From a virus, in the IMG/VR virus record IMGVR_UViG_3300020159_002019, positions 45,291-109,290 of that record: a DNA stretch of 64,000 nt; one strand, given 5' to 3'. The notes below the pieces were generated by a model. That model worked only from the letters and a program-made list of their open reading frames with translations. It was not told where the DNA came from and searched no databases. Position numbers and translations under genes: made by a program. Positions within the stretch are counted from its first letter, which is position 1, and each line of letters starts with the position of its first letter. This document shows positions 31,244 to 45,468 of this stretch, in pieces.

Positions 31244-32191
31244 ATGGATTATTCACTTATTACAGATTTAGTTGTTTCAATATTTGGAAACATTAAAAAA
31301 ACTTATCACGGAAACTCACAAGTAACCGTTGATTGTCCTTTGTGTTCCGCCGATAAAGGTGTTGAATATGATGGGAAAGGAAACCTTGAAATAAACCTTG
31401 AACAAGGATTATCTCATTGTTGGTCTTGCGAAAGAACACCCGGAACAATTGATGGACTTATTAAAAAGTTCGGAAATAAACCCCAATATAAGACATTTAA
31501 AGTTATTGCCCCTGAATATGATTACCAAATCAATAAAAGAAAATATACTAAAAAAGATAATAACATTACGGAGTTTCCAAAAGAATTTATCCCGTTCTCA
31601 ACAATAAATAAAAGAAACTATATCCACCTTCAACCATATAATTACATTATATCGAGAGGTTATACAGATGAATTATTAAAGGAATATAATATAGGGTTTT
31701 GTTTAGAAGGGAAATATAAACAAAGAATAGTAATACCATTATACGATAAGAAAGGTAATATTATTTATTTCTCAACCAGGTCATATACAGGTGCTAAACA
31801 AAAATATCTAAATCCTGATACAGATAAAGATGATTTAATATTTAATGAAAATAGAATTGATTGGGAAAAACCATTATATATTACAGAAGGTGTATTTGAT
31901 GGATTACCAATACCTAACCATTTCTTATTATTAGGGAAATCATTATCGGAGTTTAAATGGAAAACAATATATGATAACGCTAAATCGGATATTGTAATTG
32001 CTTTAGATCCTGACGCTAAAGAACAGACGTATAGAATGTATCAGAAGTTAAATGCTGGTAAATTAAGGAATAAAGTATTTGTATTACAATATACCGATGA
32101 TAGGGATTTAGGTAAATTATTTGAAAATAAAAAAGATTTTAACGATACGATATTGAATTACAGATATTTAAGTGAATTTGAAATAATTTAA
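31244..32191 (+). CDS. DNA primase (Zn-finger + TOPRIM)
   Basis: CPLC...HCWSC; RIVIP; KYLNP; ITEGVFD; ALDPD. Confidence 0.85.
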   Translation: MDYSLITDLVVSIFGNIKKTYHGNSQVTVDCPLCSADKGVEYDGKGNLEINLEQGLSHCWSCERTPGTIDGLIKKFGNKPQYKTFKVIAPEYDYQINKRKYTKKDNNITEFPKEFIPFSTINKRNYIHLQPYNYIISRGYTDELLKEYNIGFCLEGKYKQRIVIPLYDKKGNIIYFSTRSYTGAKQKYLNPDTDKDDLIFNENRIDWEKPLYITEGVFDGLPIPNHFLLLGKSLSEFKWKTIYDNAKSDIVIALDPDAKEQTYRMYQKLNAGKLRNKVFVLQYTDDRDLGKLFENKKDFNDTILNYRYLSEFEII

Positions 32192-32291
32192 TTTAAAAAA
32201 CATTTGGAAGTATAAAAAATTATATTACCTTTGTGGTATGAAAAATTAATTACATATTTAATGGTAATTATTTAAAAAAAATAAAAAAAAG

Positions 32292-32322
32292 TTTGACAAT
32301 TAAAAAAAAAGTAGTATCTTTG
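32292..32322 (+). promoter_or_regulatory. Bacteroidota-type primary-sigma promoter for tRNA operon 1
   Basis: TTTG-N19-TATCTTTG; a second copy (TTTG-N19-TACCTTTG) at 32203-32233. Confidence 0.75.
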
Positions 32323-32368
32323 TATCACAAATAAGAAAAACATACTATTTATTAGTAAGAAAATATAT

Positions 32369-32441
32369 CGTGGAGTAGTAGCAGTGGTAGCTCGCAAGGC
32401 TCATAACCTTGAGGTCGGTGGTTCGAATCCATCCTCCGCAA
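32369..32441 (+). tRNA. tRNA-fMet (CAT), initiator
   Basis: Cloverleaf, caagg-ctcataa-ccttg, C1:A72 mismatch. Confidence 0.9.
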
Positions 32442-32479
32442 CAATTTAAAAAAAGTAAAACAATTAAAAAAAAAAGATT

Positions 32480-32557
32480 ATGACAACAATTATTAACATA
32501 TTTGAATTTAACGTGATTGAGGATAGAAGCCTCGGTTTGGGATATCTTTGTGTCTAA
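32480..32557 (+). CDS. Leader peptide 1 (MTTIINIFEFNVIEDRSLGLGYLCV), putative attenuator peptide
   Basis: Ile/Phe/Glu/Asp-rich; contains GGTTTGGG complementary to the terminator 5' arm. Confidence 0.7.
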   Translation: MTTIINIFEFNVIEDRSLGLGYLCV

Positions 32558-32584
32558 TAATGTGTAGTTAGAATGAATTAAAAG

Positions 32585-32615
32585 AAACCCAAACCTAATA
32601 AGTTTGGGTTTTTTT
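32585..32615 (+). terminator. Attenuator terminator 1
   Basis: aaacccaaac-ctaataa-gtttgggttt plus T-tract, directly before tRNA-Asp. Confidence 0.8.
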
Positions 32616-32640
32616 GTTTTATATTGTTATTTGAAAATAC

Positions 32641-32716
32641 GGTTCATAGGTCAAATGGTTAAGATATCTCCCTGTCACGGAGTATGGAGCGGGTTCGATT
32701 CCCGTATGAACCGCCA
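32641..32716 (+). tRNA. tRNA-Asp (GTC)
   Basis: ctcc-ctgtcac-ggag; GGTTCGATT; encoded CCA. Confidence 0.9.
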
Positions 32717-32722
32717 AAATAG

Positions 32723-32799
32723 GGTATCAGGGGCTGCTGGGTGTGGCTACTTGACTGTCACTCAAGAAAAACAGGTGGGTTCGAATCCCATTGGTACCG
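32723..32799 (+). tRNA. tRNA-Asp (GTC), second divergent copy
   Basis: cttga-ctgtcac-tcaag; GGTTCGAATCC. Confidence 0.8.
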
Positions 32800-32810
32800 C
32801 AAAAATAAAT

Positions 32811-32884
32811 GTTCCGTTGGACAAATTGGTTAAGTCGTTTCCCTTTCAAGGAAAAGATTGCGGGTTCAAATCCCGTACGGAATA
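32811..32884 (+). tRNA. tRNA-Glu (TTC)
   Basis: tttcc-ctttcaa-ggaaa. Confidence 0.9.
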
Positions 32885-32891
32885 CAAAAAT

Positions 32892-32964
32892 GGGTTTATA
32901 GTGAAATTGGTGATCACGCATCCCTGATAAGGATGTATTATAGGTTCAAATCCTATTAGACCTA
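32892..32964 (+). tRNA. tRNA-Ile (GAT)
   Basis: catcc-ctgataa-ggatg. Confidence 0.85.
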
Positions 32965-32970
32965 CAATAT

Positions 32971-33043
32971 GGTGCAGTGGCAGATAAGGTTATTGCGGCG
33001 GACTGAAAATCCGTAGGAGTCGGATCGTTACCGACCTGCACCA
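32971..33043 (+). tRNA. tRNA-Phe (GAA)
   Basis: gcgga-ctgaaaa-tccgt; variant T-loop. Confidence 0.85.
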
Positions 33044-33052
33044 CAATAATAT

Positions 33053-33126
33053 ACTACCATAGCTCAATTGGTGAGAGCAGGATGCTTATACCATCAAGGT
33101 TGTCGGTTCAAATCCGGTTGGTAGTA
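33053..33126 (+). tRNA. tRNA-Ile (TAT)
   Basis: gatg-cttatac-catc; canonical D and T arms. Confidence 0.8.
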
Positions 33127-33131
33127 CAAAT

Positions 33132-33202
33132 GGGATAAAAGCACATAAGGATGTGCAGACCCTAAACAGGGTAAGGATTGGGTTCGAATCCCAGATATTC
33201 CA
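33132..33202 (+). tRNA. tRNA-like element with shortened anticodon loop (undetermined)
   Basis: D stem gcac/gtgc and T arm GGTTCGAATCC present; accct-aaac-agggt gives only a 4-6 nt loop. Confidence 0.55.
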
Positions 33203-33220
33203 CAAAAAAATTAAAAAAAG

Positions 33221-33251
33221 TTTGGAAATAATAAAAAAAGGAGTATCTTTG
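33221..33251 (+). promoter_or_regulatory. Bacteroidota-type promoter (near-leaderless mRNA)
   Basis: TTTG-N19-TATCTTTG, 4 nt before ATG. Confidence 0.7.
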
Positions 33252-33255
33252 TAGT

Positions 33256-34113
33256 ATGGCAAAAATAGAAACATTAAAAGCAAAATTCCCTAATATAACC
33301 GAACAAACATTTATTCGTTTATTTGAGGGTGACAAGACATCTACTAAAAAGTATGCTGAATTTTTACTTTCCGCTTGGAATAGAAAAGGGACAAATTATG
33401 GTGGTTTAAGGGGTGTTGATGACTATATTAAATTGGTTGAGAATTTTGAGAAATTAACCCCTTATATTGATAATAAGGATATATACTCTTATGGAGATAT
33501 TCAATCAATAGTTGGTGTTGTTAAAATAGCTGAAGCCGAAAAAAATGAAAAATCTTTTGATAAAGATGAACACATTTCAGTTATTGAAGAAACTGAAGAT
33601 TATATCTTTTTGATACCTAAAACACACGTTGGTTCATTAAAATATGGTTCTAATACTAAATGGTGCACAGCGGCATCAACAAGTCCTGGAACTTTTAAAT
33701 CATATATTGATAGAGGTTTTTTAGCTTATTTAGTTGATAAGAAAAATAAAAAGACGAATAATCAAAATAAATTGGCTTTTTATTTTACAAATAAAGAAAA
33801 CTTACTTACACAAGTAATCCAAATCTTTAATCAATTAGATTCACTTGTAAATGAAAACCAAGTAATACAGAGTGGTTGGGATATTATGTTATTGAGTAAT
33901 CTTATAACTAAATTGAGGGTTTTCTTATTTGAGTTTAAGGAGAAAGAAAAAGTTAGGGTTGAAGTATCTAAAACAATTCAACAATTGAATCAAATCAATT
34001 ACGATAACTTCTTTAATGCTTTAAATACGTTAAAGATAAATCCTGAGAATGTTGAAGAATTGAAAAACGCTTTAGGGTTAGTTAAAACTTCAATGAAAAA
34101 AATCAAAGTATGA
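33256..34113 (+). CDS. Hypothetical protein, YG-x-x-(T/S)KWC repeat family
   Basis: GSLKYGSNTKWCTA motif shared with three other ORFs. Confidence 0.6.
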   Translation: MAKIETLKAKFPNITEQTFIRLFEGDKTSTKKYAEFLLSAWNRKGTNYGGLRGVDDYIKLVENFEKLTPYIDNKDIYSYGDIQSIVGVVKIAEAEKNEKSFDKDEHISVIEETEDYIFLIPKTHVGSLKYGSNTKWCTAASTSPGTFKSYIDRGFLAYLVDKKNKKTNNQNKLAFYFTNKENLLTQVIQIFNQLDSLVNENQVIQSGWDIMLLSNLITKLRVFLFEFKEKEKVRVEVSKTIQQLNQINYDNFFNALNTLKINPENVEELKNALGLVKTSMKKIKV

Positions 34114-34460
34114 GGAGTGTAAAACAAATCAAAAAGTTAAGATATACTAATGATTGGGTGTCAAATGTTGATGATTCAAATATAACTTATCGTCTTTTTA
34201 CTTATAATGGTTTAACTTGGAATGTTATTTTAACTAACCGACAAGAATTAGGTGGTTGGACAATAAGGTTATGTAATAATGATGGTGATGAATTATACAT
34301 TTTTAATTCAGGTGTGAATAGAATGTCCATATCAATAAATGACGATTTAATTTACGAATTAGATGGTTGGTATTATGAAAATATAACTGAATTGAAGAAT
34401 AGGTTAGAAAACGATTTAATCGTATTATTAAGGAAATATGAGGAGTATATCAAAAATTAG
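34110..34460 (+). CDS. Hypothetical protein
   Basis: 116-aa ORF, ATGA-coupled. Confidence 0.5.
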   Translation: MRSVKQIKKLRYTNDWVSNVDDSNITYRLFTYNGLTWNVILTNRQELGGWTIRLCNNDGDELYIFNSGVNRMSISINDDLIYELDGWYYENITELKNRLENDLIVLLRKYEEYIKN

Positions 34461-34770
34461 GGTAAGTGTAAAACAAGATTTTCAAGAATGGTTGGAAAAA
34501 ACTACCATTAGTAGATGGATGCCAAGACATAGAATAATATGTAATGATGGGTTTTCTATGTCAGTTCAGGGTGGTGAGTTTACATATTCAAACCCAAGAC
34601 AATTTGGTAGTAGTTTTACTGAAATGGAGATTGGGTTTCCTTCTGAGTATGAAGAATTGATTAGTAGTTATTCTGACTCTAATGAATATACTCAAACTGT
34701 TTATCCATATGTCCCAGTAAGTTTAATTATTGAAGTGATTGAAAAACACGGAGGAATAAAAAAAGATTAG
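34438..34770 (+). CDS. Hypothetical phage protein
   Basis: CNDGFSMSVQ...EIGFPS...VYPYVP..IEKHGG. Confidence 0.6.
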   Translation: MRSISKIRVSVKQDFQEWLEKTTISRWMPRHRIICNDGFSMSVQGGEFTYSNPRQFGSSFTEMEIGFPSEYEELISSYSDSNEYTQTVYPYVPVSLIIEVIEKHGGIKKD

Positions 34771-34787
34771 AAAAAAATAAAAAAAGA

Positions 34788-34818
34788 TTTGACAAGTTAA
34801 AAAAAAATGTTATCTTTG
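34788..34818 (+). promoter_or_regulatory. Bacteroidota-type promoter for tRNA operon 2
   Basis: TTTG-N19-TATCTTTG. Confidence 0.75.
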
Positions 34819-34897
34819 TATAACAAATGGGATATGAAAATATTTTTTAGATTTCCTTGACAAAAACAAAAAAACAAACTATTTATAAATTAAAGAT

Positions 34898-35008
34898 ATG
34901 AAAAACACGAATAAAAATATGACTATGGTTGTGAAAGCAACGGCAAAAGGTGGGAATAGAAATACCACACTTGGTTTAGGGCGTGTTATGTCTTTAATGG
35001 ATAGATAA
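34898..35008 (+). CDS. Leader peptide 2 (MKNTNKNMTMVVKATAKGGNRNTTLGLGRVMSLMDR), putative attenuator peptide
   Basis: First 24 residues are all K/N/T/M/V/A/G/R; contains GGTTTAGGG antiterminator. Confidence 0.75.
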   Translation: MKNTNKNMTMVVKATAKGGNRNTTLGLGRVMSLMDR

Positions 35009-35032
35009 TACAATAATATAAAAAGATATATT

Positions 35033-35069
35033 AAAAACCCTGAACCATAAAAAAGTTCAGGGTTTTTTT
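35033..35069 (+). terminator. Attenuator terminator 2
   Basis: aaaaaccctgaac-cataaaaaa-gttcagggttttttt, directly before tRNA-Thr. Confidence 0.8.
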
Positions 35070-35077
35070 ATTTATAA

Positions 35078-35149
35078 TCCAGATTAGTTTAATTGGGAAA
35101 ACACGTCTCTTGTAAAGATGAAAAGTTGGTTCGAATCCGACATTTGGAT
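35078..35149 (+). tRNA. tRNA-Thr (TGT)
   Basis: cgtct-cttgtaa-agatg; GGTTCGAATCC. Confidence 0.85.
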
Positions 35150-35255
35150 CAAAGAAAATAGTAAAAAATTAATTAAAAATATGAAACGAAAACAGTAGGG
35201 TGTATGATCAATTAGGAATAGGTTGCATACACTAAAAATTAAAAAAAATGTATAT

Positions 35256-35343
35256 GCACCTATGGCTTAATTGGTAGAGCAACCGGCTTTTAACCGGTGG
35301 GGTAGACGAAAGTCCGTTGAAGGTTCGAGTCCTTCTGGGTGCA
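35256..35343 (+). tRNA. tRNA-Lys (TTT) with long variable arm
   Basis: accgg-cttttaa-ccggt; extra gac-gaaa-gtc hairpin. Confidence 0.8.
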
Positions 35344-35349
35344 CAATTT

Positions 35350-35422
35350 ACTTTCGTAGCTTAATTGGTAAAGAAACTAACTCTTAATTAGTGTGATGTG
35401 AGTTCGAGTCTCACTGGAAGTA
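35350..35422 (+). tRNA. tRNA-Lys (CTT)
   Basis: actaa-ctcttaa-ttagt. Confidence 0.8.
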
Positions 35423-35449
35423 CTAAATGTTATTTGAAATATTATAAAT

Positions 35450-35522
35450 TGGGATGTAACTCAGAGGCTAGAGTGTTTGCCTGTTAAGCAAAAAGTCGAG
35501 ATATCGTAATTCTCCATCCCAG
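35450..35522 (+). tRNA. tRNA-Asn (GTT)
   Basis: tttgc-ctgttaa-gcaaa; atypical T-loop. Confidence 0.75.
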
Positions 35523-35583
35523 CAAAAATTGAAAGATAAACGTATGAAACAAAGGAATGTAGTGGTTTATTAAGTAAATATAT

Positions 35584-35655
35584 GGCTCTATCGTTTAACG
35601 CATAAGACATTTCTCTTCTAAAGAAAGAATAGGGGTTGGATTCCCTTTAGAGCCA
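35584..35655 (+). tRNA. tRNA-Arg (TCT)
   Basis: tttct-cttctaa-agaaa. Confidence 0.8.
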
Positions 35656-35659
35656 CAGC

Positions 35660-35687
35660 AATCCAAGTTCGATTCTTGGTGGGAGTA
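35660..35687 (+). pseudogene. Orphan tRNA 3' half (T arm + acceptor strand)
   Basis: ccaag-ttcgatt-cttgg-tgggagta with no matching 5' half. Confidence 0.55.
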
Positions 35688-35696
35688 CAAAAAAAT

Positions 35697-35767
35697 ACCT
35701 TCTTAGTTAAATGGGAGAATATCTGTTTTACATACAGAAGATAACTGTTCGATTCAGTTAGGGGGTA
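35697..35767 (+). tRNA. tRNA-Val (TAC)
   Basis: tctgt-tttacat-acaga. Confidence 0.8.
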
Positions 35768-35819
35768 CAAAAAAAGATTTGATTTTTTAAAAAAAATTAT
35801 TATCTTTAAAAAACAATAT

Positions 35820-35892
35820 GGGGTTATGGTATAGTTGGCGAACACAGTAGCTTTGCAAGCTTCAGTCCCGAGTTCAAATCTCGGTAGCTCCA
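35820..35892 (+). tRNA. tRNA-Ala (TGC)
   Basis: agc-tttgcaa-gct; G3:U70 pair. Confidence 0.85.
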
Positions 35893-35895
35893 CAA

Positions 35896-35965
35896 TGTTT
35901 CACTTAGAATAAAAACAAACGCTTAATAGCAACAAACTCTTAATTTGTCAATTATTAGTGAAACA
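35896..35965 (+). repeat. CACTTAGAATAA stem element, copy 1
   Basis: Closing stem tgtttcact/agtgaaaca. Confidence 0.6.
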
Positions 35966-35968
35966 AAT

Positions 35969-36039
35969 GTCGATATAGTTAAATGGGATAACACCCCTCT
36001 CATCAAGGGAAGTTATTGGTTCGAATCCAGTTATCGATA
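35969..36039 (+). tRNA. tRNA-Met (CAT), elongator (Ile2 not excluded)
   Basis: ccct-ctcatca-aggg; GGTTCGAATCC. Confidence 0.75.
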
Positions 36040-36050
36040 CCCTGAAATAA

Positions 36051-36127
36051 TATTTCACTTAGAATAAAAAACTATTTGAATTTATCCTCCAATGGAGGGT
36101 GTATTTAATCCAATTAATAGTGAAATA
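36051..36127 (+). repeat. CACTTAGAATAA stem element, copy 2
   Basis: Closing stem tatttcact/agtgaaata; internal cctcc/ggagg hairpin. Confidence 0.6.
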
Positions 36128-36130
36128 AAT

Positions 36131-36203
36131 GCGGGTGTAGCTCAATTGGTAGAGCGCGACCTTGCCAAGGTCGAGGCTGTGGGATCGTACCCCATCACCC
36201 GCT
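36131..36203 (+). tRNA. tRNA-Gly (GCC)
   Basis: cgacc-ttgccaa-ggtcg. Confidence 0.9.
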
Positions 36204-36206
36204 CAT

Positions 36207-36412
36207 TGAGTAAGAGGTACTCAGTAGTCTTTAATCCAAGACTCATTTAACAATGGATTCGCTTAAATCGGACAGCGAAAATGCCGGTTCTTAGGAATAA
36301 GGAGCGAAGCACACCTCCCCTTCGTAGTGTGACTATTTTTAATGGGGATGCCCTTCAGGTTTTTGGAAAGAAGAAAACCGAAATGACTACTCACCTAAAT
36401 CTCAAGGTGGGG
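36207..36412 (+). ncRNA. Candidate structured ncRNA between the two tRNA-Gly genes
   Basis: GC-richer than genome; several hairpins, a long-range stem and two possible pseudoknots. Confidence 0.45.
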
Positions 36413-36419
36413 TAAACAA

Positions 36420-36491
36420 GCGAGTATCGTATAATGGCTATTATACCACGCTTCCAACGTGGGGATGTGATTTCGATTATCACTACTCGCT
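36420..36491 (+). tRNA. tRNA-Gly (TCC)
   Basis: ccacg-cttccaa-cgtgg. Confidence 0.85.
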
Positions 36492-36520
36492 CCGGACGTT
36501 TTAGAAATCAGTAATATTTT

Positions 36521-36552
36521 TTTGGTATTACTGATTTTTTTTATTACCTTTG
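36521..36552 (+). promoter_or_regulatory. Bacteroidota-type promoter
   Basis: TTTG-N20-TACCTTTG. Confidence 0.65.
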
Positions 36553-36568
36553 TAGAAATAATAAAATT

Positions 36569-37018
36569 ATGACACTTAAAGAACAAATTCAAAAAGACTT
36601 CATCACGGCTATGAAAAATAAAGATGAATGGACTAAATCCGCTCTAAGTGGGTTAAAATCAAAGATTACTGAAGCTGAAAAAGTTAATGGAACAGAATTA
36701 TCAGACGCTGATATTCTTAAACTAATTAATAAAGGTATTAAACAAAGGGAAGAATCTGCTACTATATATAGTGAAGCAGGTCGTCCGGAATTAGCTGCGA
36801 AAGAATTACTTGAACTTAATGTTTTAATGGATTATATGCCAGCTCAAATGACTGATGAGGAAATTGAAACGGCTGTAAGGGAAATTATTGTTGGATTACC
36901 TACAATGACAAACGCAAATGCCTTGTCAGGAAAAACTATGGGTGAATTCAATAAAAAGTATCAAGGAATGGCTGATTCTAAAAGAGTTTCAGAAATTATA
37001 AAAAAAGTTGTATCATAA
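36569..37018 (+). CDS. GatB/YqeY domain protein
   Basis: MTLKEQIQKDFITAMKNKD...KQREESATIYSEAGRPELA.KE..EL.VL..YMPAQM. Confidence 0.9.
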   Translation: MTLKEQIQKDFITAMKNKDEWTKSALSGLKSKITEAEKVNGTELSDADILKLINKGIKQREESATIYSEAGRPELAAKELLELNVLMDYMPAQMTDEEIETAVREIIVGLPTMTNANALSGKTMGEFNKKYQGMADSKRVSEIIKKVVS

Positions 37019-37062
37019 TTTGACTTTCAATAAACAATAAACTATAATTAAAAAACAAAAAT

Positions 37063-37173
37063 GGGGGGTAATTTTTTAGTGGATTGAAAATACCACTTAG
37101 AATAACTCTAAACTATATTGGTAAAAGTTTGACTAATAATCAAATATAGAAGGTTCGAACCCTTCACCCCCCG
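37063..37173 (+). ncRNA. tRNA-like RNA (AAT loop) with ~40-nt insertion carrying CACTTAGAATAA copy 3
   Basis: ggggggt/acccccc acceptor, tttga-ctaataa-tcaaa arm, gaagg-ttcgaac-ccttc T arm. Confidence 0.6.
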
Positions 37174-37203
37174 CAATTATTAACAATATAAAACATAAAG
37201 TAT

Positions 37204-39042
37204 ATGACAGAATTAGTAAAAGAAAAAATGAAGTTATCTAACACATTAGATACATTACAATTTTTAAGAACCGCTAAAGGTGCTTCAGATGAAAAAATTC
37301 ATTTGGCTTTAGATAAAGCCTATGCTGAAACAACATCTAATGGAGTTGAGGAAATGTTATATAGAATTATGTTTCATATTGGAGATATTTCAAGAAAGCA
37401 TAATATCTTTAAAGAATTTGAAATCAACTCAGAAGTGGGTGGGGCTCAAGAAAGAAAGATATTTAGATCTTGTGTAAGATGGATGCAAAAGAACACCCCA
37501 GAGTTCTTGCATAACAACTTAAAGTTAGTAGTTGAATATACTTCATACGAAACTTTAATGTATTACCAAGTAAGCACAAACAGATATTTGGGTAATGTTA
37601 TGGGTGTTGAAAAACTATTCATTGACAACCAATATTTGTTCCCTTTCTTAAAGTCTGAGATTGAATCAGGTGTAAACTTGAACTTAATCGCAAGACACTT
37701 ACCTAAATATGCTACAGGTAAGCAAAGAACAACTAAAAAGACTTTAGTTGGTAAAAGGGGAAGAACTGAATTCAGTTGGACATTACCGAAAGGTAAGACT
37801 TGGGTTAAAATCAATGGAAACCTTGTAAATGGTGATAAAATCACGGTTAAGCATGGTGATGTTGCTGAATACCCAAGAGAAAAGAAATCTGAGTCTTTAA
37901 CAAGACAAAGTTTCTTAAACAAGTGGATTAAGGATTTCTGTGATTATATGAAATGGACAATCGCTGATTACAAAGCATTTAAGGGTAAGCAGAATACTGC
38001 TGAACAAAAAATGTCAAGTGGTTCAGTAATGTCTATGACAGAAGATCAATTTAATGGTTTCTTGGATTCTTTGACTGCGGGACAAAGAAAAAGGGTTGTA
38101 AAATCATTGGGTAATCCTAAATGGGGACAGCTAACTAAATGGTATAAGGCTTGGGAAGATGACCAATCTAACTTAGCTGAAAAAATTAGAAAAGCTACCA
38201 CACCTGCTGAAAAAGCCGCTTTGATGAAAGATTTCAAAGTTAAAACAACAGGGGATCAAACAATTGATTTGTTGGCTGAAATGCTTGGTAAGGGTTTAAA
38301 TGCTCAACAAGTAAATAACAACTATCAATCAATGATTGAGAGAATGAACATTAAACATTCAGTATTTCCAATTATTGACGGTTCGGGTTCTATGGATAGT
38401 ACTTTTGACCATAACGGTGTAGGAATATCTAACAGACAAGTAGCATACGCAATGGCAATTGCATTTACTACAATGAATCCAAACCCAAGATTTAGAAATA
38501 CTTATGGTTGGTTCTCAAACGACTTTAAGGTTTTTGGTAGGTCTGAGTATGGTGATACCTATATATCTATGTTTAAGAATGTGGATAAGTATGTAAGTCA
38601 TACAAAGACTTTTACTGAGAATTACAGATTACTTATGGAGACAGATCCAAAAGAAATTACATCTACAAATATGTTTGCTTCGGTAGAATATTTTGTAAAT
38701 CTTGTGAAAACAGGAAGATGTACTATGGAAGAATTACCTGAAACATTACTTTATCTTACAGATAATGAGTATAATTCAGGTAAATCACCAAAAGAAGCGG
38801 TTACTTTAGCCAATTCAATTGGATGGAGACCAAAGTTAATTTTTTGGGGTATTACCACAATGACTCATTCTATTAAGGAAGAGTTAAAATATACTCCGAA
38901 TGGTTTATTCATCGGTGGTTTCAACGAAAGTTGTTTATCACAAATCTTGGATGGAATCTCAAAAGATTCAATAAATCCAGAAGATGAATTGTGGGCTATT
39001 TATAACGATATTCGTTATAGTGTAATTAAAGTAGGTGAATAA
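37204..39042 (+). CDS. DUF2828/TROVE-like protein with C-terminal vWA domain
   Basis: GGAQERKIFR N-terminal motif; IIDGSGSM MIDAS; STNM; LLYLTDNEYN; PKLIFW. Confidence 0.65.
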   Translation: MTELVKEKMKLSNTLDTLQFLRTAKGASDEKIHLALDKAYAETTSNGVEEMLYRIMFHIGDISRKHNIFKEFEINSEVGGAQERKIFRSCVRWMQKNTPEFLHNNLKLVVEYTSYETLMYYQVSTNRYLGNVMGVEKLFIDNQYLFPFLKSEIESGVNLNLIARHLPKYATGKQRTTKKTLVGKRGRTEFSWTLPKGKTWVKINGNLVNGDKITVKHGDVAEYPREKKSESLTRQSFLNKWIKDFCDYMKWTIADYKAFKGKQNTAEQKMSSGSVMSMTEDQFNGFLDSLTAGQRKRVVKSLGNPKWGQLTKWYKAWEDDQSNLAEKIRKATTPAEKAALMKDFKVKTTGDQTIDLLAEMLGKGLNAQQVNNNYQSMIERMNIKHSVFPIIDGSGSMDSTFDHNGVGISNRQVAYAMAIAFTTMNPNPRFRNTYGWFSNDFKVFGRSEYGDTYISMFKNVDKYVSHTKTFTENYRLLMETDPKEITSTNMFASVEYFVNLVKTGRCTMEELPETLLYLTDNEYNSGKSPKEAVTLANSIGWRPKLIFWGITTMTHSIKEELKYTPNGLFIGGFNESCLSQILDGISKDSINPEDELWAIYNDIRYSVIKVGE

Positions 39043-39053
39043 CCTACTTTTTT
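39028..39053. terminator. Bidirectional terminator
   Basis: aaagtaggt/acctacttt between convergent genes. Confidence 0.65.
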
Positions 39054-39271
39054 TATGCCTTTATTTTAACCACAACCTCACCTTCATTATTAGTGGTTAG
39101 ATAATATTCTTTTTTGTTTGTAAATCCATATTTTTTAGATATGTTTGATTCTATCCTTTTTTTGGTTGATGGTGTGTTAGCAAATGTAATATGTGGTTGA
39201 ACATATTCATCTTTGAATTGTTCCATTTTATTTACCGTTTCTTTAATAATTCTCTTAATTAAATTTTTCAT
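39053..39271 (-). CDS. Small hypothetical protein
   Basis: MKNLIKRIIKE N-terminus; TATTTAT motif upstream on minus strand. Confidence 0.55.
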   Translation of the reverse strand: MKNLIKRIIKETVNKMEQFKDEYVQPHITFANTPSTKKRIESNISKKYGFTNKKEYYLTTNNEGEVVVKIKA

Positions 39272-39338
39272 ATAAATAAATATTTGGTTTTATGAAAACT
39301 ATTATTTATATTTGTATTGTAATTAAAAAATAAAATAT

Positions 39339-40004
39339 ATGTATAATAACAAAACAGATTTTAACAAATTCGCAACATCGCATATGGGTATATCGTCTTT
39401 ATACCTCGATGATCTTCAATCGTCAATGACACCTCACATCTTAGAAGAAAGACCGACAAGAGCAAATCTTATGTCAGTATTTGATAGATTGATGCAAGAT
39501 AGGATTATTTGGGTTGCCGGTGCGGTTGATGAGGGTATGTCACAAGTTATTCAAGCGCAATTGATTTACTTGTCAAACTCAGACCCTAAGAAAGAAATTA
39601 CGATGCACATTGACACTCCTGGTGGTTCAGTAAAGGCTGGATTATCAATCGTGGATGTAATGGATTATGTTAAACCTGACATTAGAACAATCAATACAGG
39701 TATGGCGGCATCAATGGGTTCAGTATTGTTAGGCGCTGGAACCAAAGGAAAAAGAATGTCTTTAAGATTTTCACAAACAATGCTACACCAATCTTCAGGT
39801 GGTGTGAGAGGAAATATTCAGGATGCTAGGATAACAATGATTGAATGGGAAAAAATAAATGATTTGTTATTTAATTTGTTAGGTGGGTATTGTGGTAAGG
39901 ATGCTATCCAAGTAAAAGAAGATGCTTCTCGTGATTTATGGTTAAGTTCTGAAGAAGCGTTGGCTTATGGGATAATTGACGAAATAATCAAACCAAAAAA
40001 ATAA
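39339..40004 (+). CDS. clpP: ATP-dependent Clp protease proteolytic subunit
   Basis: DTPGGSV, GMAASMGSVLL (catalytic Ser), MLHQ, RDLWLSSEEALAYGIID. Confidence 0.95.
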   Translation: MYNNKTDFNKFATSHMGISSLYLDDLQSSMTPHILEERPTRANLMSVFDRLMQDRIIWVAGAVDEGMSQVIQAQLIYLSNSDPKKEITMHIDTPGGSVKAGLSIVDVMDYVKPDIRTINTGMAASMGSVLLGAGTKGKRMSLRFSQTMLHQSSGGVRGNIQDARITMIEWEKINDLLFNLLGGYCGKDAIQVKEDASRDLWLSSEEALAYGIIDEIIKPKK

Positions 40005-40015
40005 TTAAAAAAAAG

Positions 40016-40046
40016 TTTGACAATTAGAAAAAAAATATTATCTTTG
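40016..40046 (+). promoter_or_regulatory. Bacteroidota-type promoter for tRNA operon 3
   Basis: TTTG-N19-TATCTTTG. Confidence 0.75.
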
Positions 40047-40121
40047 TATTATAAATGGGATGTGAAAAATATTTTTCACATTTCCATAACAAAAACAAAA
40101 AAACAAACTATTTAATATAAA

Positions 40122-40256
40122 ATGAAAACATTAATTAACATATCATTATCGTCATTGTATCTATTACAGTCGCTATGCCAAAGTTGTGTTTCGGTATTAC
40201 CGTTACATCAGTATTGGTTAGTGCTAGGATTTAGTGCGGTGGGTATGTTAAGTTGA
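40122..40256 (+). CDS. Leader peptide 3 (MKTLINISLSSLYLLQSLCQSCVSVLPLHQYWLVLGFSAVGMLS), putative attenuator peptide
   Basis: 24 of residues 8-33 are S/L/Y/Q/C/P/H/W; contains GGATTTAG antiterminator. Confidence 0.75.
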   Translation: MKTLINISLSSLYLLQSLCQSCVSVLPLHQYWLVLGFSAVGMLS

Positions 40257-40278
40257 TAAGACAATAATATACCTTATT

Positions 40279-40320
40279 AAACCCCCTAAATCCGTATAAA
40301 TGAGATTTAGGGGGTTTTTT
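40279..40320 (+). terminator. Attenuator terminator 3
   Basis: aaaccccctaaatc...gatttagggggtttttt, before tRNA-Pro. Confidence 0.8.
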
Positions 40321-40354
40321 ATTTTAGTTATTTGACATATTGTATTAGAAATAT

Positions 40355-40427
40355 CAGGGTGTATATCAATTGGGAGATTACTCCATTTGGATTGGAGAGG
40401 TTGTAGGTTCGAGTCCTATCACCCTGA
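40355..40427 (+). tRNA. tRNA-Pro (TGG)
   Basis: ctcca-tttggat-tggag. Confidence 0.85.
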
Positions 40428-40434
40428 CAAATAT

Positions 40435-40505
40435 TCCCCTTTCGTCTAACGGCAGGACAGATGGTTTTGAGCTATCGAATCGAGGTTCGAATCCTTGAGG
40501 GGGAA
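40435..40505 (+). tRNA. tRNA-Gln (TTG)
   Basis: gatgg-ttttgag-ctatc; U1:A72. Confidence 0.85.
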
Positions 40506-40557
40506 CCGGTTTGGGTTTTACACTTTTAAACTTACGAGATAAGGAAAAAGTGAAATT

Positions 40558-40628
40558 GGGATGATGCCGAGAGTGGTCAGACGGTCTGTAAAACCGAACT
40601 GCATAGTGTTTGAGTCACTTCCATCCCA
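40558..40628 (+). tRNA. tRNA-Tyr (GTA), atypical with short variable region
   Basis: cggt-ctgtaaa-accg; degenerate D and T arms. Confidence 0.65.
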
Positions 40629-40638
40629 CAAAATAAAC

Positions 40639-40712
40639 GTAAGTGTAGTGAACAATGGCTAACACGTTCGGTTCCAACCCGAAAGATGTGGGTTCGACCC
40701 CTACCACTTGCG
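40639..40712 (+). tRNA. tRNA-Trp (CCA)
   Basis: ttcgg-ttccaac-ccgaa; G73. Confidence 0.85.
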
Positions 40713-40719
40713 CAAATAA

Positions 40720-40814
40720 GGAGAGGTGCTAGAGATGGATTATTGGGCTAGTCTTGAAAACTAGAGATCGTCAGTGATGGGGATCCGTGGGTTCGAATCC
40801 CACTCTCTCCTCCA
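40720..40814 (+). tRNA. tRNA-Ser (TGA)
   Basis: ctagt-cttgaaa-actag; long variable arm; CCA. Confidence 0.9.
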
Positions 40815-40819
40815 AATAT

Positions 40820-40898
40820 GGGTTTGTTGGTGTTAATTGGATGAGCATTTACGATTGTGGCTCGTAAGGTGAGGGGTTCGAATCCCCCATAAACCCCA
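40820..40898 (+). tRNA. tRNA-His (GTG)
   Basis: tacga-ttgtggc-tcgta; G-1:C73. Confidence 0.85.
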
Positions 40899-40978
40899 AA
40901 AGTAAGGAATTAGGTTATTATACGTAGGCTCCGAGTGTAATAACTGAAATTTAGATCCTTATGAACTTCGGTCCGCAG

Positions 40979-41066
40979 GGAGAATTGACAGAGTGGTAAT
41001 GTATCGGTTTGCTAATCCGTAGTCTATGTAAAAGTAGCGGGGGCTCGAATCCCTCATTCTCCGCCA
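40979..41066 (+). tRNA. tRNA-Ser (GCT)
   Basis: ttgctaa loop; long variable arm; G73 then CCA. Confidence 0.8.
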
Positions 41067-41075
41067 AAAATAAAT

Positions 41076-41164
41076 GCTTCTGTGGCGAAATTGGTAGCAC
41101 GCGATGGACTTAAAATCCATTGGGAAATAACAGTACCGTGTCGGTTCGATTCCGACCAGAAGTA
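41076..41164 (+). tRNA. tRNA-Leu (TAA)
   Basis: atgga-cttaaaa-tccat; long variable arm. Confidence 0.9.
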
Positions 41165-41171
41165 CAAACAT

Positions 41172-41257
41172 ACCCCAATGTTGGAATGTAGACAACCTAG
41201 TTTTAGAAACTAGTGTGAAGTAATAGTAGCGTCTGGGTTCAAATCCCAGTTGGGGTA
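41172..41257 (+). tRNA. tRNA-Leu (TAG)
   Basis: ctagt-tttagaa-actag; long variable arm. Confidence 0.85.
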
Positions 41258-41263
41258 CAAAAT

Positions 41264-41351
41264 GGGAATGTGGTGTGAGTGGTTGAAACCGGGGGTCTGC
41301 AAAACCCCAAAAACGAAAGTTTTCACGTCAGTTCGAATCTGATCATTCCCT
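41264..41351 (+). tRNA. tRNA-Cys (GCA) with long variable arm
   Basis: ggggt-ctgcaaa-acccc; aaaac-gaaa-gtttt extra arm; U73. Confidence 0.8.
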
Positions 41352-41360
41352 CAATTACAT

Positions 41361-41433
41361 GACCCCATAGTTCAATGGATTAGAATACTTGAATACGGAT
41401 CAGGAGATGAGAGTTCAAATCTTTCTGGGGTTA
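41361..41433 (+). tRNA. tRNA-Arg (ACG)
   Basis: cttga-atacgga-tcagg. Confidence 0.8.
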
Positions 41434-41440
41434 CAAAAAG

Positions 41441-41466
41441 AAAACCATTTTTATATGGTTTTTTTT
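41441..41466 (+). terminator. Terminator ending tRNA operon 3
   Basis: aaaaccat/atggtttt plus T-tract. Confidence 0.6.
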
Positions 41467-41489
41467 ATGCCATTACATATTTATTACAT

Positions 41490-44162
41490 ATGATTATTAT
41501 TGAAGGAAAATTAGAAGATTTATCTAAGAAATATATACCGAAGTTTAATAGGGATTCATTTACTGAAGGTTTAACCCCTGAATCTGTTATTGAGCATTTA
41601 TATGTTTCAGATCCATCACCAACAAAGAAATACTTTGAGTGGATGATTAAAGAATGTTTGGGATTGATAGAACGTAATTATGTTATTAACAATGAAAAAA
41701 TAGCTAAACTTGTAACGGATATCCAAGAATTTGATAGAAATATTGATAAACTTAGTCAGGATTTTTTAGATTATAATAAAGAAGAAATTGGTGAAATTGC
41801 GTATAAGTTTTTAAATGGTAAGGCTTTAAAAGATATTGGTACATATAATTACGATATTTTAAGAAAAATAATACCTTCATTGGTAGAATATAAGACAGAA
41901 AGTCAAAGAAGAAGATTGGCTAAAGAAGGTGCTAAAATTATATTTCAAGATGAAAAATATGATGTTTATGAAATAGATACTTATGACGCTTCTTGTTTTT
42001 ATGGTCAAGGTTCTAAATGGTGTACAACTTATAAACAAAGTGATTCACATTTTAAATCATATGGTACTGGTAGGAATAAATTATTATATGTTATTAGTAA
42101 AACTAAGACAAAAGAAACTGATCCTCAATTTTATAAGATTGCTATAAATATAAGGTATGTTGATGAACAAATAACATTTTGGGATGCTCCTGATAATAGT
42201 TTTAATGGTTGGAAATATTTTAGGGAACAAGATCCAAATATTTTAACTTTTTTGATTTCTTATATTAAAGAAAAGAATCCTGAAGGATATCTTAAAATGA
42301 TACCTGAAAACTATTTAATAACGATTAAACAAGAAGAAGAAGGTTTAAGTGATTTAAATATTATTTCGGTTTTAGATGTTGATAAATCTAGTGATTGGTT
42401 AAGTCATAAATATGGGTTAAATGGTGTGGATACTATTATTAAAAAATTGGATATATTACAAGGTAATGTCAGTAATTTTTTAGGTGATTATTTTACCAGT
42501 GATGAAAAAGAGTATTTAATCATAAAAAGAAGTGAGAAATTAGAACCAAGAGGTTTGTCGTGGAAAGATTTAGTTAAAAGTTATCACCAATTAGCAATTA
42601 CTCTAGATAGCTATCAACCAAGTTGGTTTATTGATAATTTTTTAGGTGGGGATAAAAACAAAGCGTTAGAAATTGGGACAAAAGAACCGATAGTACTATA
42701 TTGGTTGGCTAGAGGTAGTGTTAATATAAAGGATTTGGGTGATTTATATGGAGCTGAAAAACTTGTTAAATATATTACTAAAAGTAAAGTTAAAGTTATT
42801 TTTGGGTTAAGTGATATATTGGGTGGTTTATTTACAAATGAAACTCCAAAGAAAAGAAAGGAGTTATATGAAATTGCTTATAAGTATGATGGCAAAAAAA
42901 GGAATATTGAATTAGTCGATTATTTGTCTAGACGTATGGGTAAAGAGGGATTCATTGCGTCATTTAATAAAGGTGATGGATATGGAATTGAACCTGATTC
43001 ATATGGAAGAGCATTTTTATATGTTAAAAATAATAACCCTGATTTAATAAGTAATGTATTTAACATTGAGGATATTAGTAAAATCTTCAAGTCAAACGAA
43101 AAAGCGTTTACTTATTTATTAAAAAATTATGATGAATTTACACGTAATTTAGATATTAGTGATTTAACTGAAATGTTTAGTGGTGATGTTCCTGATAGTA
43201 TATATGGTAAATATATGAGTGATTGGGAAAAGAGGAATGTTGCGTCAATATATAGAATGAAAAATGGTTCTGAAAAACTATTTGATTTTGTTCTTAAAAA
43301 GTTTTCTTTTAAAAAGTTAGCCGATATCATCGGATATGATGGAGTATTTCAATTATTTTCTATTGTTAAGTTTAAAAAAGGTATAAACTATATGATTGAA
43401 AATAAGGTTGGCGATATCGCTATTGATGATATAAAAATAAAAGATGGTAAGGTGGTATTGGTTGTTAATGATAGAACGGATTATGCGTTTTTATTTGATG
43501 ATGAAGATTTGGCTAAAACTATATTGGGTGAAGATATGGATTGGGAACCGTATAACGATACTATTTATAATTGGTATGATCAAGTATGGGATTGTATGGT
43601 ACCAAAATCAATTGAACTGGTTAAGTCTTGGATTAAAAGTAATATAACAGATTATGAGAATGATGAAGGTGAAAAAATTGATTTAGGTGATACATATTTA
43701 AATGAAATAGATGATGATGATTTGGGTAAAATAATAGATGAGTACGATGAATTTAGGGATTTAAAAAATGAGATGAGTTGGGCTTATGATAATGGTTATA
43801 ATTCTGTTGCTCAAAGTGATATTATTAGTAAAACACAAGATCAATTAGAAGAATATTTAGGTAGTTATATAGGGTATGAACCAGTTAAAAAGAATGGTCG
43901 TAGATATAATAAAGAAACAGGTAATTCTGAATCATACGAATATACAGCATATGAATACTTATATAATGTGGGTGATGGTTTATATGATATATTATATGAT
44001 TATGCAACTACTAATTGGGGTCATTCGGTTGATTACAACACATATTTTAGCACTTTATTAAAGGATTCTGACCCTAAAAAGTTATATATTGATACTGAGG
44101 CTTATCCAGACGATAAAGAAATTTGTGAGTATTTTAATGATGATTTACCGGAAAGAATATGA
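41490..44162 (+). CDS. Large hypothetical protein, YG-KWC family with acidic C-terminal domain
   Basis: DPSPTKKYFEW; ASCFYGQGSKWCTT. Confidence 0.6.
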   Translation: MIIIEGKLEDLSKKYIPKFNRDSFTEGLTPESVIEHLYVSDPSPTKKYFEWMIKECLGLIERNYVINNEKIAKLVTDIQEFDRNIDKLSQDFLDYNKEEIGEIAYKFLNGKALKDIGTYNYDILRKIIPSLVEYKTESQRRRLAKEGAKIIFQDEKYDVYEIDTYDASCFYGQGSKWCTTYKQSDSHFKSYGTGRNKLLYVISKTKTKETDPQFYKIAINIRYVDEQITFWDAPDNSFNGWKYFREQDPNILTFLISYIKEKNPEGYLKMIPENYLITIKQEEEGLSDLNIISVLDVDKSSDWLSHKYGLNGVDTIIKKLDILQGNVSNFLGDYFTSDEKEYLIIKRSEKLEPRGLSWKDLVKSYHQLAITLDSYQPSWFIDNFLGGDKNKALEIGTKEPIVLYWLARGSVNIKDLGDLYGAEKLVKYITKSKVKVIFGLSDILGGLFTNETPKKRKELYEIAYKYDGKKRNIELVDYLSRRMGKEGFIASFNKGDGYGIEPDSYGRAFLYVKNNNPDLISNVFNIEDISKIFKSNEKAFTYLLKNYDEFTRNLDISDLTEMFSGDVPDSIYGKYMSDWEKRNVASIYRMKNGSEKLFDFVLKKFSFKKLADIIGYDGVFQLFSIVKFKKGINYMIENKVGDIAIDDIKIKDGKVVLVVNDRTDYAFLFDDEDLAKTILGEDMDWEPYNDTIYNWYDQVWDCMVPKSIELVKSWIKSNITDYENDEGEKIDLGDTYLNEIDDDDLGKIIDEYDEFRDLKNEMSWAYDNGYNSVAQSDIISKTQDQLEEYLGSYIGYEPVKKNGRRYNKETGNSESYEYTAYEYLYNVGDGLYDILYDYATTNWGHSVDYNTYFSTLLKDSDPKKLYIDTEAYPDDKEICEYFNDDLPERI

Positions 44163-44944: not shown

Positions 44945-45468
44945 AAGCCACGAAATTCCGTAATATCCACAGGAACACATAAGATTTTATTATAAAAAGT
45001 TTTATACCCACCACGAGTTTTTTCGGTTTCAGCTTCAATCCTATTAGGATCTACAACTTTATAATATTTAACATTTGTTTCACTATCCGCATACCCAACA
45101 AAATCACCCAATTCTATATCACATTTCTTTTCTTCCAATTGTTTTTTATAAACATAAAATGTAAGATTGCCATAATCCTCATAGAATAATGTACCATTAG
45201 GGTTATATGATTTTGGAGCATTATCCTCAATACTTACCAATACTTTCAGTTCAATTGGGGGTTTAAATCTTATTTCATCTTGAAGAGTTTCTCCGTAAAT
45301 ATCGTCATAATTTGTTTTTTGTCTGTCTATTTGATATAAGACAACTGTAAAGTTATTATCATCTTCTAGGTATTCGCGGCCCATTTCTATGTCAAGCGAA
45401 AAATCTACATCGTCATACCATTTTGATAATCTGGTAATAGGTATTTTTTTGTTATTTAATGGATTCAT
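44941..45468 (-). CDS. Putative neck/head-closure protein (gp14-like)
   Basis: DDIYGE...FKPPIEL...GNLTFYVY...IELGDF pattern; TATTTAT upstream. Confidence 0.5.
   Translation of the reverse strand: MNPLNNKKIPITRLSKWYDDVDFSLDIEMGREYLEDDNNFTVVLYQIDRQKTNYDDIYGETLQDEIRFKPPIELKVLVSIEDNAPKSYNPNGTLFYEDYGNLTFYVYKKQLEEKKCDIELGDFVGYADSETNVKYYKVVDPNRIEAETEKTRGGYKTFYNKILCVPVDITEFRGF

Follow-up and report, generated by a model that had tools for sequence, protein, structure and literature searches.

In this work, we analyzed a 64,000-nucleotide (nt) stretch of viral DNA (positions 45,291 to 109,290 of the IMG/VR record IMGVR_UViG_3300020159_002019; hereafter, the window), which makes up the 3' part (64 kb) of one viral contig of 109,290 bp with a G+C content of 29%. 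With the application of the ARAGORN tool, 27 tRNA genes were called in the window, located on the plus strand and grouped into three arrays. The second of them (array 2, ten tRNA genes at 35078-36493) is preceded by a promoter, a 36-codon open reading frame (ORF), referred to as leader ORF 2, and an intrinsic terminator, and the whole is designated here module 2. Judging from its sequence, module 2 is very probably a ribosome-mediated transcription attenuator of the trp/ilv type, which would gate the ten-tRNA array and exert negative feedback on decoding. Sequence features expected under this reading were found in module 2 itself, and also in both sister modules, in orthologous loci and in phages unrelated to this one. 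The architecture comprises a single promoter upstream of the ORF, an antiterminator strand localized within the ORF, a match between leader and array that is specific to the reading frame, and leaders that track arrays whose tRNAs have been repartitioned.

Composition of leader ORF 2 and of its tRNA array

The original prediction stated that residues 1-24 of the leader peptide use only M, K, N, T, V, A, G and R, that all eight are present, and that these are the amino acids carried by the tRNAs encoded downstream. Translation of 34898-35008 confirmed this composition, and exactly the ten tRNAs that had been named were called in array 2 by both ARAGORN and Rfam (Rfam tRNA scores of 52-65 bits). 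Together, these eight amino acids account for 46.2% of the predicted proteome of the phage. The probability of the 24/24 match, computed for 23 further residues in a row at proteome frequencies, was p = 2e-8, and the number of ATG-started runs of 24-residue length expected in the genome was 7.5e-5. A random-codon model with the base composition of the genome gave p ~1e-11 for the same run. Moreover, across the six frames of the 109,290-bp genome, no run composed of these residues is longer than that in leader 2, the runner-up reaching 13 residues. A chance origin of the 24-residue run is thereby excluded.

The match extends to the level of codons. The Arg codon of the sensing stretch is AGA, the one read by Arg-UCU, as had been predicted, and the Gly codons of leader 2 are GGT and GGG, one for each Gly tRNA of array 2. 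Under strict wobble rules, 20 of the 24 codons are decoded by the array's own anticodons, and the remaining distinct codons (ACT, ACC and GTT) require four-way reading by U34. The sensing stretches of leader 2 and of the leaders preceding the two other arrays (leaders 1 and 3, described below) favour codons that are rare in the genome and mostly G-ending, i.e., TCG (three occurrences; 5% of Ser codons), CAG (two; 8%) and CTA (three; 6%), and further CCG, ACG (two), GGG and GAG. It is also worth mentioning that such rare codons are those leaning most on the U34 tRNAs of the arrays.

The features discussed in this work are collected in Table 1. Relatives of the phage were fetched using the 612-aa ORF 37204-39042 as an anchor; these and the loci found by the pattern searches described below are designated by L numbers.

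Table 1. Features of module 2, of its sister modules and of selected leaders in other viral loci (window coordinates unless preceded by an L number).
Feature	Position	Strand	Basis and remarks
Promoter of module 2, Bacteroidota type (-33 TTTG, 19 nt, -7 TAnnTTTG)	34788-34818	+	Motif scan
Putative 5' untranslated region	34825-34897	+	Transcription start inferred; imperfect palindrome (~34829-34856), then A-rich, without Shine-Dalgarno sequence; 97% identical in L001
Leader ORF 2, 36 codons plus TAA	34898-35008	+	Translation; start, frame and stop conserved in L001:8069-8179 and L010:1055-1159
Sensing stretch (codons 2-24; residues limited to the eight amino acids carried by array 2 tRNAs)	34901-34969	+	Translation, codon analysis
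Antiterminator strand (region 2), complementary to terminator 5' arm	34972-34982	+	Duplex energy, shuffles
Intrinsic terminator	35036-35069	+	Arms 35036-35045 and 35055-35064, T7 run 35063-35069; hairpin -16 kcal/mol
tRNA-Thr-UGU	35078-35150	+	ARAGORN, Rfam
tRNA-Lys-UUU	35256-35344	+	ARAGORN, Rfam
tRNA-Lys-CUU	35350-35423	+	ARAGORN, Rfam
tRNA-Asn-GUU	35450-35523	+	ARAGORN, Rfam
tRNA-Arg-UCU	35584-35656	+	ARAGORN, Rfam
tRNA-Val-UAC	35697-35768	+	ARAGORN, Rfam
tRNA-Ala-UGC	35820-35893	+	ARAGORN, Rfam
tRNA-Met-CAU	35968-36042	+	ARAGORN, Rfam
tRNA-Gly-GCC	36131-36204	+	ARAGORN, Rfam
tRNA-Gly-UCC	36420-36493	+	ARAGORN, Rfam
Initiator-like tRNA-Met (C1 x A72 mismatch)	32369-32442	+	ARAGORN, acceptor stem read; between promoter and leader 1, outside the gate
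Module 1: leader ORF 32480-32557 (Ile/Phe/Glu/Asp-rich), terminator 32581-32615	32480-32615	+	Folds, duplex test
Module 3: leader ORF 40122-40256, terminator 40280-40316 plus T-run	40122-40322	+	Folds, codon analysis, duplex test
Leader with seven consecutive Gln codons	L102:4926-5006		Before four tRNA-Gln genes
Gln-rich leader	L104:3029-3100		Before tRNA-Gln block
Gln-rich leader	L108:3406-3456	-	Before tRNA-Gln block
Ser/Arg alternating leader	L105:5652-5720		Before Ser, Arg, Ser, Ser, Arg, Ser
Leader of Ile, Tyr, Gly, Ala, Glu	L106:738-833		Before Glu x3, Tyr x2, Gly x3, Ile, Ala x2
Leader of His, Lys, Phe, Trp, Ser	L105:758-862		Before His, Lys, Trp, Phe, His, Phe, Lys x3
Leader with 23/24 residues from the set of its own array	L103:1290-1421		17-tRNA array

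Within array 2 itself, the gene of tRNA-Lys(UUU) is 89 nt long and carries about 14 extra nt in its variable region, while its orthologue in L001 (8428-8502) has 75 nt. The spacer between the two Gly tRNA genes (36205-36419) is 215 nt long; over its first ~95 nt, conservation in L001 and L008 amounts to ~76%, and its 5' end is complementary to its 3' end. A small structured RNA might be encoded here.

The arrays across 32369-41434 are roughly ordered by the first letter of the codon, array 2 decoding A- and G-starting codons and array 3 C- and U-starting ones. The decoding of Arg is divided likewise, with AGR codons assigned to the UCU anticodon of array 2 and CGN codons to the ACG anticodon of array 3, and array 1 contains Asp, Glu, Ile and Phe.

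Terminator, antiterminator and the proposed switch

The promoter motif occurs 12 times in the window, compared with 4.07 +/- 1.96 expected occurrences, and near-identical copies of the promoter are localized at 32292, 34788 and 40016, i.e., one upstream of each array. The motif scan detected no strict-motif site within 35069-36500. The terminator of module 2 ends 8 nt upstream of the gene of tRNA-Thr, which leaves no room for a further promoter between them. With the sole promoter located upstream of the terminator, tRNA-Thr at least would therefore be made only by transcriptional read-through.

A perfect 22-bp palindrome (40060-40081, within 40057-40085) was found right after the -7 box of promoter 3, and an imperfect copy of it is present at promoter 2 (34829-34856); module 1 is without a promoter-adjacent palindrome. 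This element could serve as the operator of a dimeric protein, or it could form a stem-loop at the 5' end of the transcript.

For the antiterminator, the original prediction had pointed to GGTTTAGGG (34973-34981) and, as its partner, to CCCTGAACC (35038-35046). Both sequences are located at these positions and can pair over 9 bp, including one G-U pair. When the whole leader was searched for the best partner of the 5' arm of the terminator, the segment 34972-34982 was obtained, with a duplex energy of -14.4 kcal/mol compared with -8.0 +/- 1.5 for dinucleotide shuffles, of which none (0/200) reached the observed value.

In the next analysis, the nascent RNA up to the terminator loop was folded while the 30 nt covered by a ribosome were masked at each codon in turn (masking folds). 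With the ribosome on codons 1-21, the 5' arm of the terminator was predicted to be paired upstream with P = 0.8, and with the ribosome on codons 23-33 this value decreased to 0.24-0.45. The same step, down to 0.02-0.1, was obtained for leaders 1 and 3, exactly past their last matched codons. According to these folds, the matched stretch ends where a ribosome would begin to hide the antiterminator. In the model, peptide composition and RNA structure thus coincide on the boundary of the sensing region, which is a non-trivial agreement. The earlier claim that the match ends where the antiterminator starts is therefore upheld as far as the folds agree on this boundary; the end of the match as such is soft, because 7 of the 12 residues of the tail also belong to the set, which is near expectation.

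From these data we infer that the leader is translated and which physiological signal it senses, and, from the geometry, that the polarity of the switch is such that a stall results in read-through. In the proposed mechanism, host RNA polymerase would start at the promoter of module 2 (34788-34818) and a ribosome would translate the 36-codon leader. Slow decoding of any Thr, Lys, Asn, Met, Val, Ala, Gly or Arg (AGA) codon at positions 2 to ~21 would delay this ribosome. Behind a lagging ribosome, the strand 34972-34982 would stay free and pair with 35036-35046, so that no terminator would be formed and transcription would enter the tRNA genes. In the case of fast decoding, the ribosome would pass over the strand toward the stop codon, the hairpin and the T7 run would form, and transcription would end 8 nt before tRNA-Thr. 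Since the products of the array would speed up the decoding of the sensed codons, the circuit would constitute negative feedback, keeping the decoding capacity at a set point, block by block. The tRNAs would be switched on in response to a shortage, mismatch or depletion of the host pool, and modules 1 and 3 would work alike on the other two tRNA blocks.

Sister modules, relatives and unrelated phages

Leader 1 precedes the genes of tRNAs for Asp, Asp, Glu, Ile-GAU, Phe and Ile-UAU, and contains ATA, the codon for Ile-UAU. Leader 3, which is rich in Ser, Leu, Gln, Cys, Pro, His, Trp and Tyr, precedes Pro, Gln, Tyr-like, Trp, Ser, His, Ser, Leu, Leu, Cys and Arg-ACG. The terminators of the three modules are unlike in sequence and their antiterminators differ too, each strand within an ORF being complementary to the arm of its own terminator. 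Leader 3 contains two Tyr codons, yet no tRNA-Tyr was called in the window. These codons predict the Tyr-like gene at ~40558-40632, in which the anticodon is GTA (Tyr) and the T-arm is degenerate, with a 4-bp stem and the loop TTTGAGT; neither ARAGORN nor Rfam (E <= 1) detected this gene. L001, L003 and L008 have conserved it, and in L002 a canonical tRNA-Tyr gene is found in its place. The initiator-like tRNA-Met listed in Table 1, in which two, not three, G-C pairs adjoin the anticodon loop, lies outside the gate of module 1; this location makes sense, because elongation cannot sense an initiator tRNA.

A further tRNA-like element (33132-33202) was found 3' of array 1. Its Rfam tRNA score (23.8 bits) is under the 29-bit cut-off, its T-arm is normal and a proper anticodon loop is missing; the element is 93-96% conserved in L001 and L002.

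The composition of the gated arrays bears on the question of which signal the device evolved to sense. It might be argued that the same device responds to amino-acid starvation, i.e., to uncharged tRNA and not to the amount of tRNA, like the attenuators of biosynthetic operons; starvation would then increase the transcription of the tRNA genes, with no true feedback. The codon match fits both readings, and a leader-peptide sensor cannot distinguish a missing tRNA from an uncharged one, as in the trp and his attenuators. Wired to starvation, however, the circuit would bring no benefit, because more tRNA does not relieve an amino-acid shortage. Moreover, the regulated genes decode the sensed codons by isoacceptor (AGA and Arg-UCU, ATA and Ile-UAU, GGT plus GGG and the two Gly tRNAs), and the initiator-like tRNA, which elongation does not sense, is left outside the gate. 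We therefore regard starvation as an unlikely evolved signal, and a response to the supply of tRNA is retained in the attenuator reading.

Comparison with the relatives indicated what is conserved in the leaders. In L001 (94% identity of the anchor protein), the module is 97% identical and the nucleotide changes are concentrated in leader codons 9-16, where all three residue changes stay inside the eight-residue set; the sole other change within the sensing stretch, Asn20 to Asp, falls outside it. In L010 (86% anchor identity), there are eight substitutions in the first 23 residues, 8/8 within the set, and a T-to-C change in the antiterminator turns the G-U pair into G-C. As judged by these substitutions, the conserved property is membership in the set, not the peptide sequence. 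In L002 (9200-9740), leader 2, the terminator and the eight tRNA genes from Thr to Met have all been lost together.

In the more distant L004 and L025 (49% anchor identity), the tRNAs are divided into blocks differently. In L004, the block Met, Tyr, Ile, Tyr, Ile, Met, Val, Phe, His lies behind a leader (L004:71-160) rich in Ile, Tyr, Phe, Val and His, and the block Ser, Thr, Leu, Arg-UCU, Cys behind a leader (L004:9002-9091) with Thr, Ser, Leu, Arg (AGA) and Cys. Thus, the amino acids that moved between blocks in L004/L025 also moved between leaders. At the level of sequence comparison, these cases of repartition are the strongest evidence against mere co-inheritance. In L005, L006, L007 and most of the metagenome loci (L014-L038), tRNAs are few or none, or the leader is absent, and hence the device is not universal in the group defined by the anchor protein.

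The first seven codons of leader 3 (MKTxINI), used as a DNA pattern, matched 58 loci in IMG/VR, of which 17, located in unrelated contigs, are ORFs of 16-45 aa with a strong terminator and then a tRNA array downstream. The same pattern matched at least 120 loci in the genomes of bacteria and archaea, and none of the 65 short ORFs among the matches listed directly precedes a tRNA array. This one narrow pattern test gave no sign of host tRNA operons using the cassette. Within the tRNA regions of four viral records, nearly every array starts 5-60 nt past a terminator preceded by a matched short ORF (examples are given in Table 1).

The MKTxINI start is conserved at the nucleotide level in unrelated viral contigs (L044, L053, L054, L065, L067, L086, L091, L095 and others; window: 40122-40142). 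According to predicted folds, the INI codons of this start are base-paired with the final codons of its own ORF, resulting in a long-range helix that closes the whole leader. Candidate roles of this start, suggested by the folds, are an anti-antiterminator, occlusion of the start site, or a trace of common descent of a mobile cassette. In L162, a metagenome-assembled genome of Ferruginibacter sp. (Bacteroidota), a 17-tRNA array is located ~1 kb downstream of an MKTxINI-type short ORF; this array may belong to a prophage or a binned phage contig, and may be a hint to the host range.

For the statistical analysis, 26 non-redundant leader-array pairs were collected by a single rule (a terminator <=150 nt upstream of a tRNA gene and an ORF end 10-60 nt before the terminator). 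The sum of the z-scores of leaders against their own arrays was 75.3, compared with 0.36 +/- 7.4 when the pairings were permuted (highest sum in 200,000 permutations: 42.2), i.e., a difference of ~10 standard deviations, and for 17/26 leaders the own array ranked first of 26. The geometry is also constant: the gap between stop codon and terminator has a median of 25 nt (range 20-31), the gap between terminator and tRNA a median of 15.5 nt (5-30 nt in most cases), and the antiterminator starts at a median of 10.5 nt past the best matched segment. Complementarity between the leader and the 5' arm of the terminator reached a mean z of -2.77, and in 12/26 leaders it was equalled by at most 5 of 200 shuffles. 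The fraction of residues belonging to the own set was 0.44 in frame, compared with 0.22 and 0.23 in the two other frames (paired t, p ~1e-9 and 6e-8, respectively).

This frame specificity speaks against an RNA element acting independently of translation (e.g., by direct, T-box-like binding of tRNA), as does the conservation of the start and stop positions of the leader. An Rfam search of 31500-42000 at E <= 1 yielded no T-box, leader or other cis-regulatory family; matches to Thr_leader, located over the terminators, remained below threshold (23-27 bits versus a cut-off of 55 bits). A coincidence of base composition might be invoked as well, since A-rich sequence favours Lys and Asn codons, but nothing specific was found for it, and the random-codon probability of the 24-residue run given above argues against it. 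We consider both explanations, taken together, to be extremely improbable.

Several observations weigh against the attenuator reading or narrow it. In the masking folds, the last two or three matched codons of leader 2 already occlude the antiterminator and thus cannot signal. In leader 2, the stop codon is separated from the antiterminator strand by 23-24 nt; with its footprint alone, a ribosome that has reached the stop would therefore leave the strand uncovered. In the equilibrium model, a ribosome parked there brings P back to 0.8 with the antiterminator free, and hence termination in the 'fast' state would depend on timing or on a second helix. A ribosome-free transcript of leader 2 is likewise predicted to favour the antiterminator at equilibrium (0.8), and the sequestering helix of the 1:2 type is weak in leader 2 (P = 0.33, compared with 0.72-0.74 in leaders 1 and 3). 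Inside array 2, a near-promoter that fails the strict motif (TTTG ... TATCTTTA, ~35773-35806) is present upstream of tRNA-Ala; if active, it could let the last four tRNAs (Ala, Met, Gly, Gly) bypass the gate. Furthermore, the Gly-Gly pair remaining in L002 is localized directly behind the promoter, ungated, and an ungated array was also found in L007:13640. Finally, leaders and arrays are inherited together, and therefore the 26 pairs are not fully independent events.

The near-promoter and the directly promoter-driven Gly-Gly pair of L002 would also fit another explanation, in which the promoter, the small ORF and the terminator would together be an independent micro-gene or a small RNA and nothing would be sensed, constitutive production of the tRNAs resulting from leakiness of the terminator or from internal promoters that escaped recognition. 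Such a unit would not account for the conservation of set membership in a peptide whose sequence is not conserved, nor for terminators that mostly end 5-30 nt before the first tRNA, for the family-wide significance of the complement to the terminator arm within the ORF, or for a composition that tracks the content of the array in unrelated phages. Thus, we deem it very unlikely, and the attenuator reading is preferred here.

As regards the genomic context, a YqeY-like gene (36569-37018, Pfam E = 5e-38) is located directly 3' of array 2, and a gene encoding a ClpP protease (39339-40004, E = 3e-57) upstream of module 3. The 612-aa anchor ORF resembles Campylobacter phage proteins annotated as 'RNA-binding' or 'vWA-like' (24-27% identity); these were its only tblastn matches, and neither Pfam nor a profile search of PDB sequences gave any match. 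A blastn search of the region against 50,697 phage records revealed only tRNA-level matches and no cultured relative.

Comparison with known systems and significance

Enterobacterial leader attenuators include multivalent ones, such as those of ilvGMEDA (Ile/Val/Leu) and thr (Thr/Ile), as well as single-amino-acid forms (trpL, hisL, leuL and pheL). By analogy, the multivalent ilvGMEDA and thr leaders appear to be the closest to module 2 in working principle. They share the order of promoter, short leader ORF and intrinsic terminator, the use of several amino acids per leader, the competition of an antiterminator for the 5' arm of the terminator, and the placement of the regulatory codons upstream of that strand. 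Unlike them, the phage device would control tRNA genes, not biosynthetic enzymes, and its output would feed back on the sensed quantity itself. Module 2 would read eight amino acids, with one to five codons each and no long run of a single residue. The phage leaders also differ in having the stop codon after the antiterminator strand, at a fixed distance of 20-31 nt from the terminator, and in their phage setting, with promoters of the Bacteroidota type and no match to an Rfam leader family.

The pheST operon of E. coli, encoding phenylalanyl-tRNA synthetase, also has a leader-peptide attenuator. As would be the case in the phage, a gene of the translation apparatus is there placed under the control of ribosome speed on cognate codons; however, pheST controls a synthetase and reads one amino acid, whereas the phage device would control tRNAs. 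T-box riboswitches resemble the phage modules in that the state of tRNA is sensed and read-through of a terminator is set by an alternative antiterminator. A T-box binds uncharged tRNA directly, needs no ribosome, and has a specifier loop and a conserved T-box sequence; in contrast, there is no T-box match here and the phage signal is frame-specific. In leaders of the ermC and cat type, the stall results from an antibiotic together with a specific nascent peptide, and most of them act on translation, not on termination. Although in both cases ribosome stalling in a short ORF would remodel the downstream RNA structure, the phage device would read codon supply.

The nearest published inducible tRNA array is the long array (trn operon) of Anabaena sp. 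PCC 7120, in which the repressor TrcR acts at the promoter (PMC8421152, PMC10272220). Like the phage arrays in the proposed mechanism, it is an accessory tRNA array that is silent until translation is impaired. The terms leader peptide, attenuation and terminator are absent from these two papers (PMC8421152, PMC10272220), and we rejected the trn operon as a precedent for leader-peptide control, its regulation being repressor-based. Full-text literature searches returned no description of leader-peptide attenuation of tRNA genes. What would be new is the application of leader-peptide attenuation to tRNA genes, with matching to multiple amino acids. A mechanism known for amino-acid and synthetase genes would thereby be extended to tRNAs as a closed feedback loop, covering up to eight or nine amino acids per leader.

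The finding may also be of use in annotation, as a terminator located a few nt before a tRNA gene, with a short ORF 20-31 nt upstream of the terminator, may serve as a marker of the device. Moreover, leaders can predict missed or non-canonical tRNAs, as exemplified by the Tyr codons of leader 3 and the Tyr-like gene.

The presence of tRNA genes in phages is a long-standing puzzle, for which compensation of codon usage, replacement of host tRNAs degraded in the course of infection and escape from anticodon nucleases have been proposed as explanations. It is possible, and we put it forward only tentatively, that the modules represent a phage 'tRNA-stat' present in several lineages, in which each tRNA block would be autoregulated by a leader that samples it, being made on demand when host decoding fails and shut off on recovery; the cassette with the MKTxINI-type start would then spread together with tRNA blocks. 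The triggers of such a circuit might be a mismatch in codon usage, phage-induced loss of host tRNAs, or an attack by a host anticodon nuclease. A built-in sensor of decoding would also make the question of phage tRNAs testable: the sequence of a leader would name the codons that the phage expects to become limiting. With a putative sensor of decoding speed located before each tRNA block, the phage would treat its tRNAs as an on-demand supply, and it probably makes the tRNAs of array 2 only when ribosomes decode the corresponding codons slowly.

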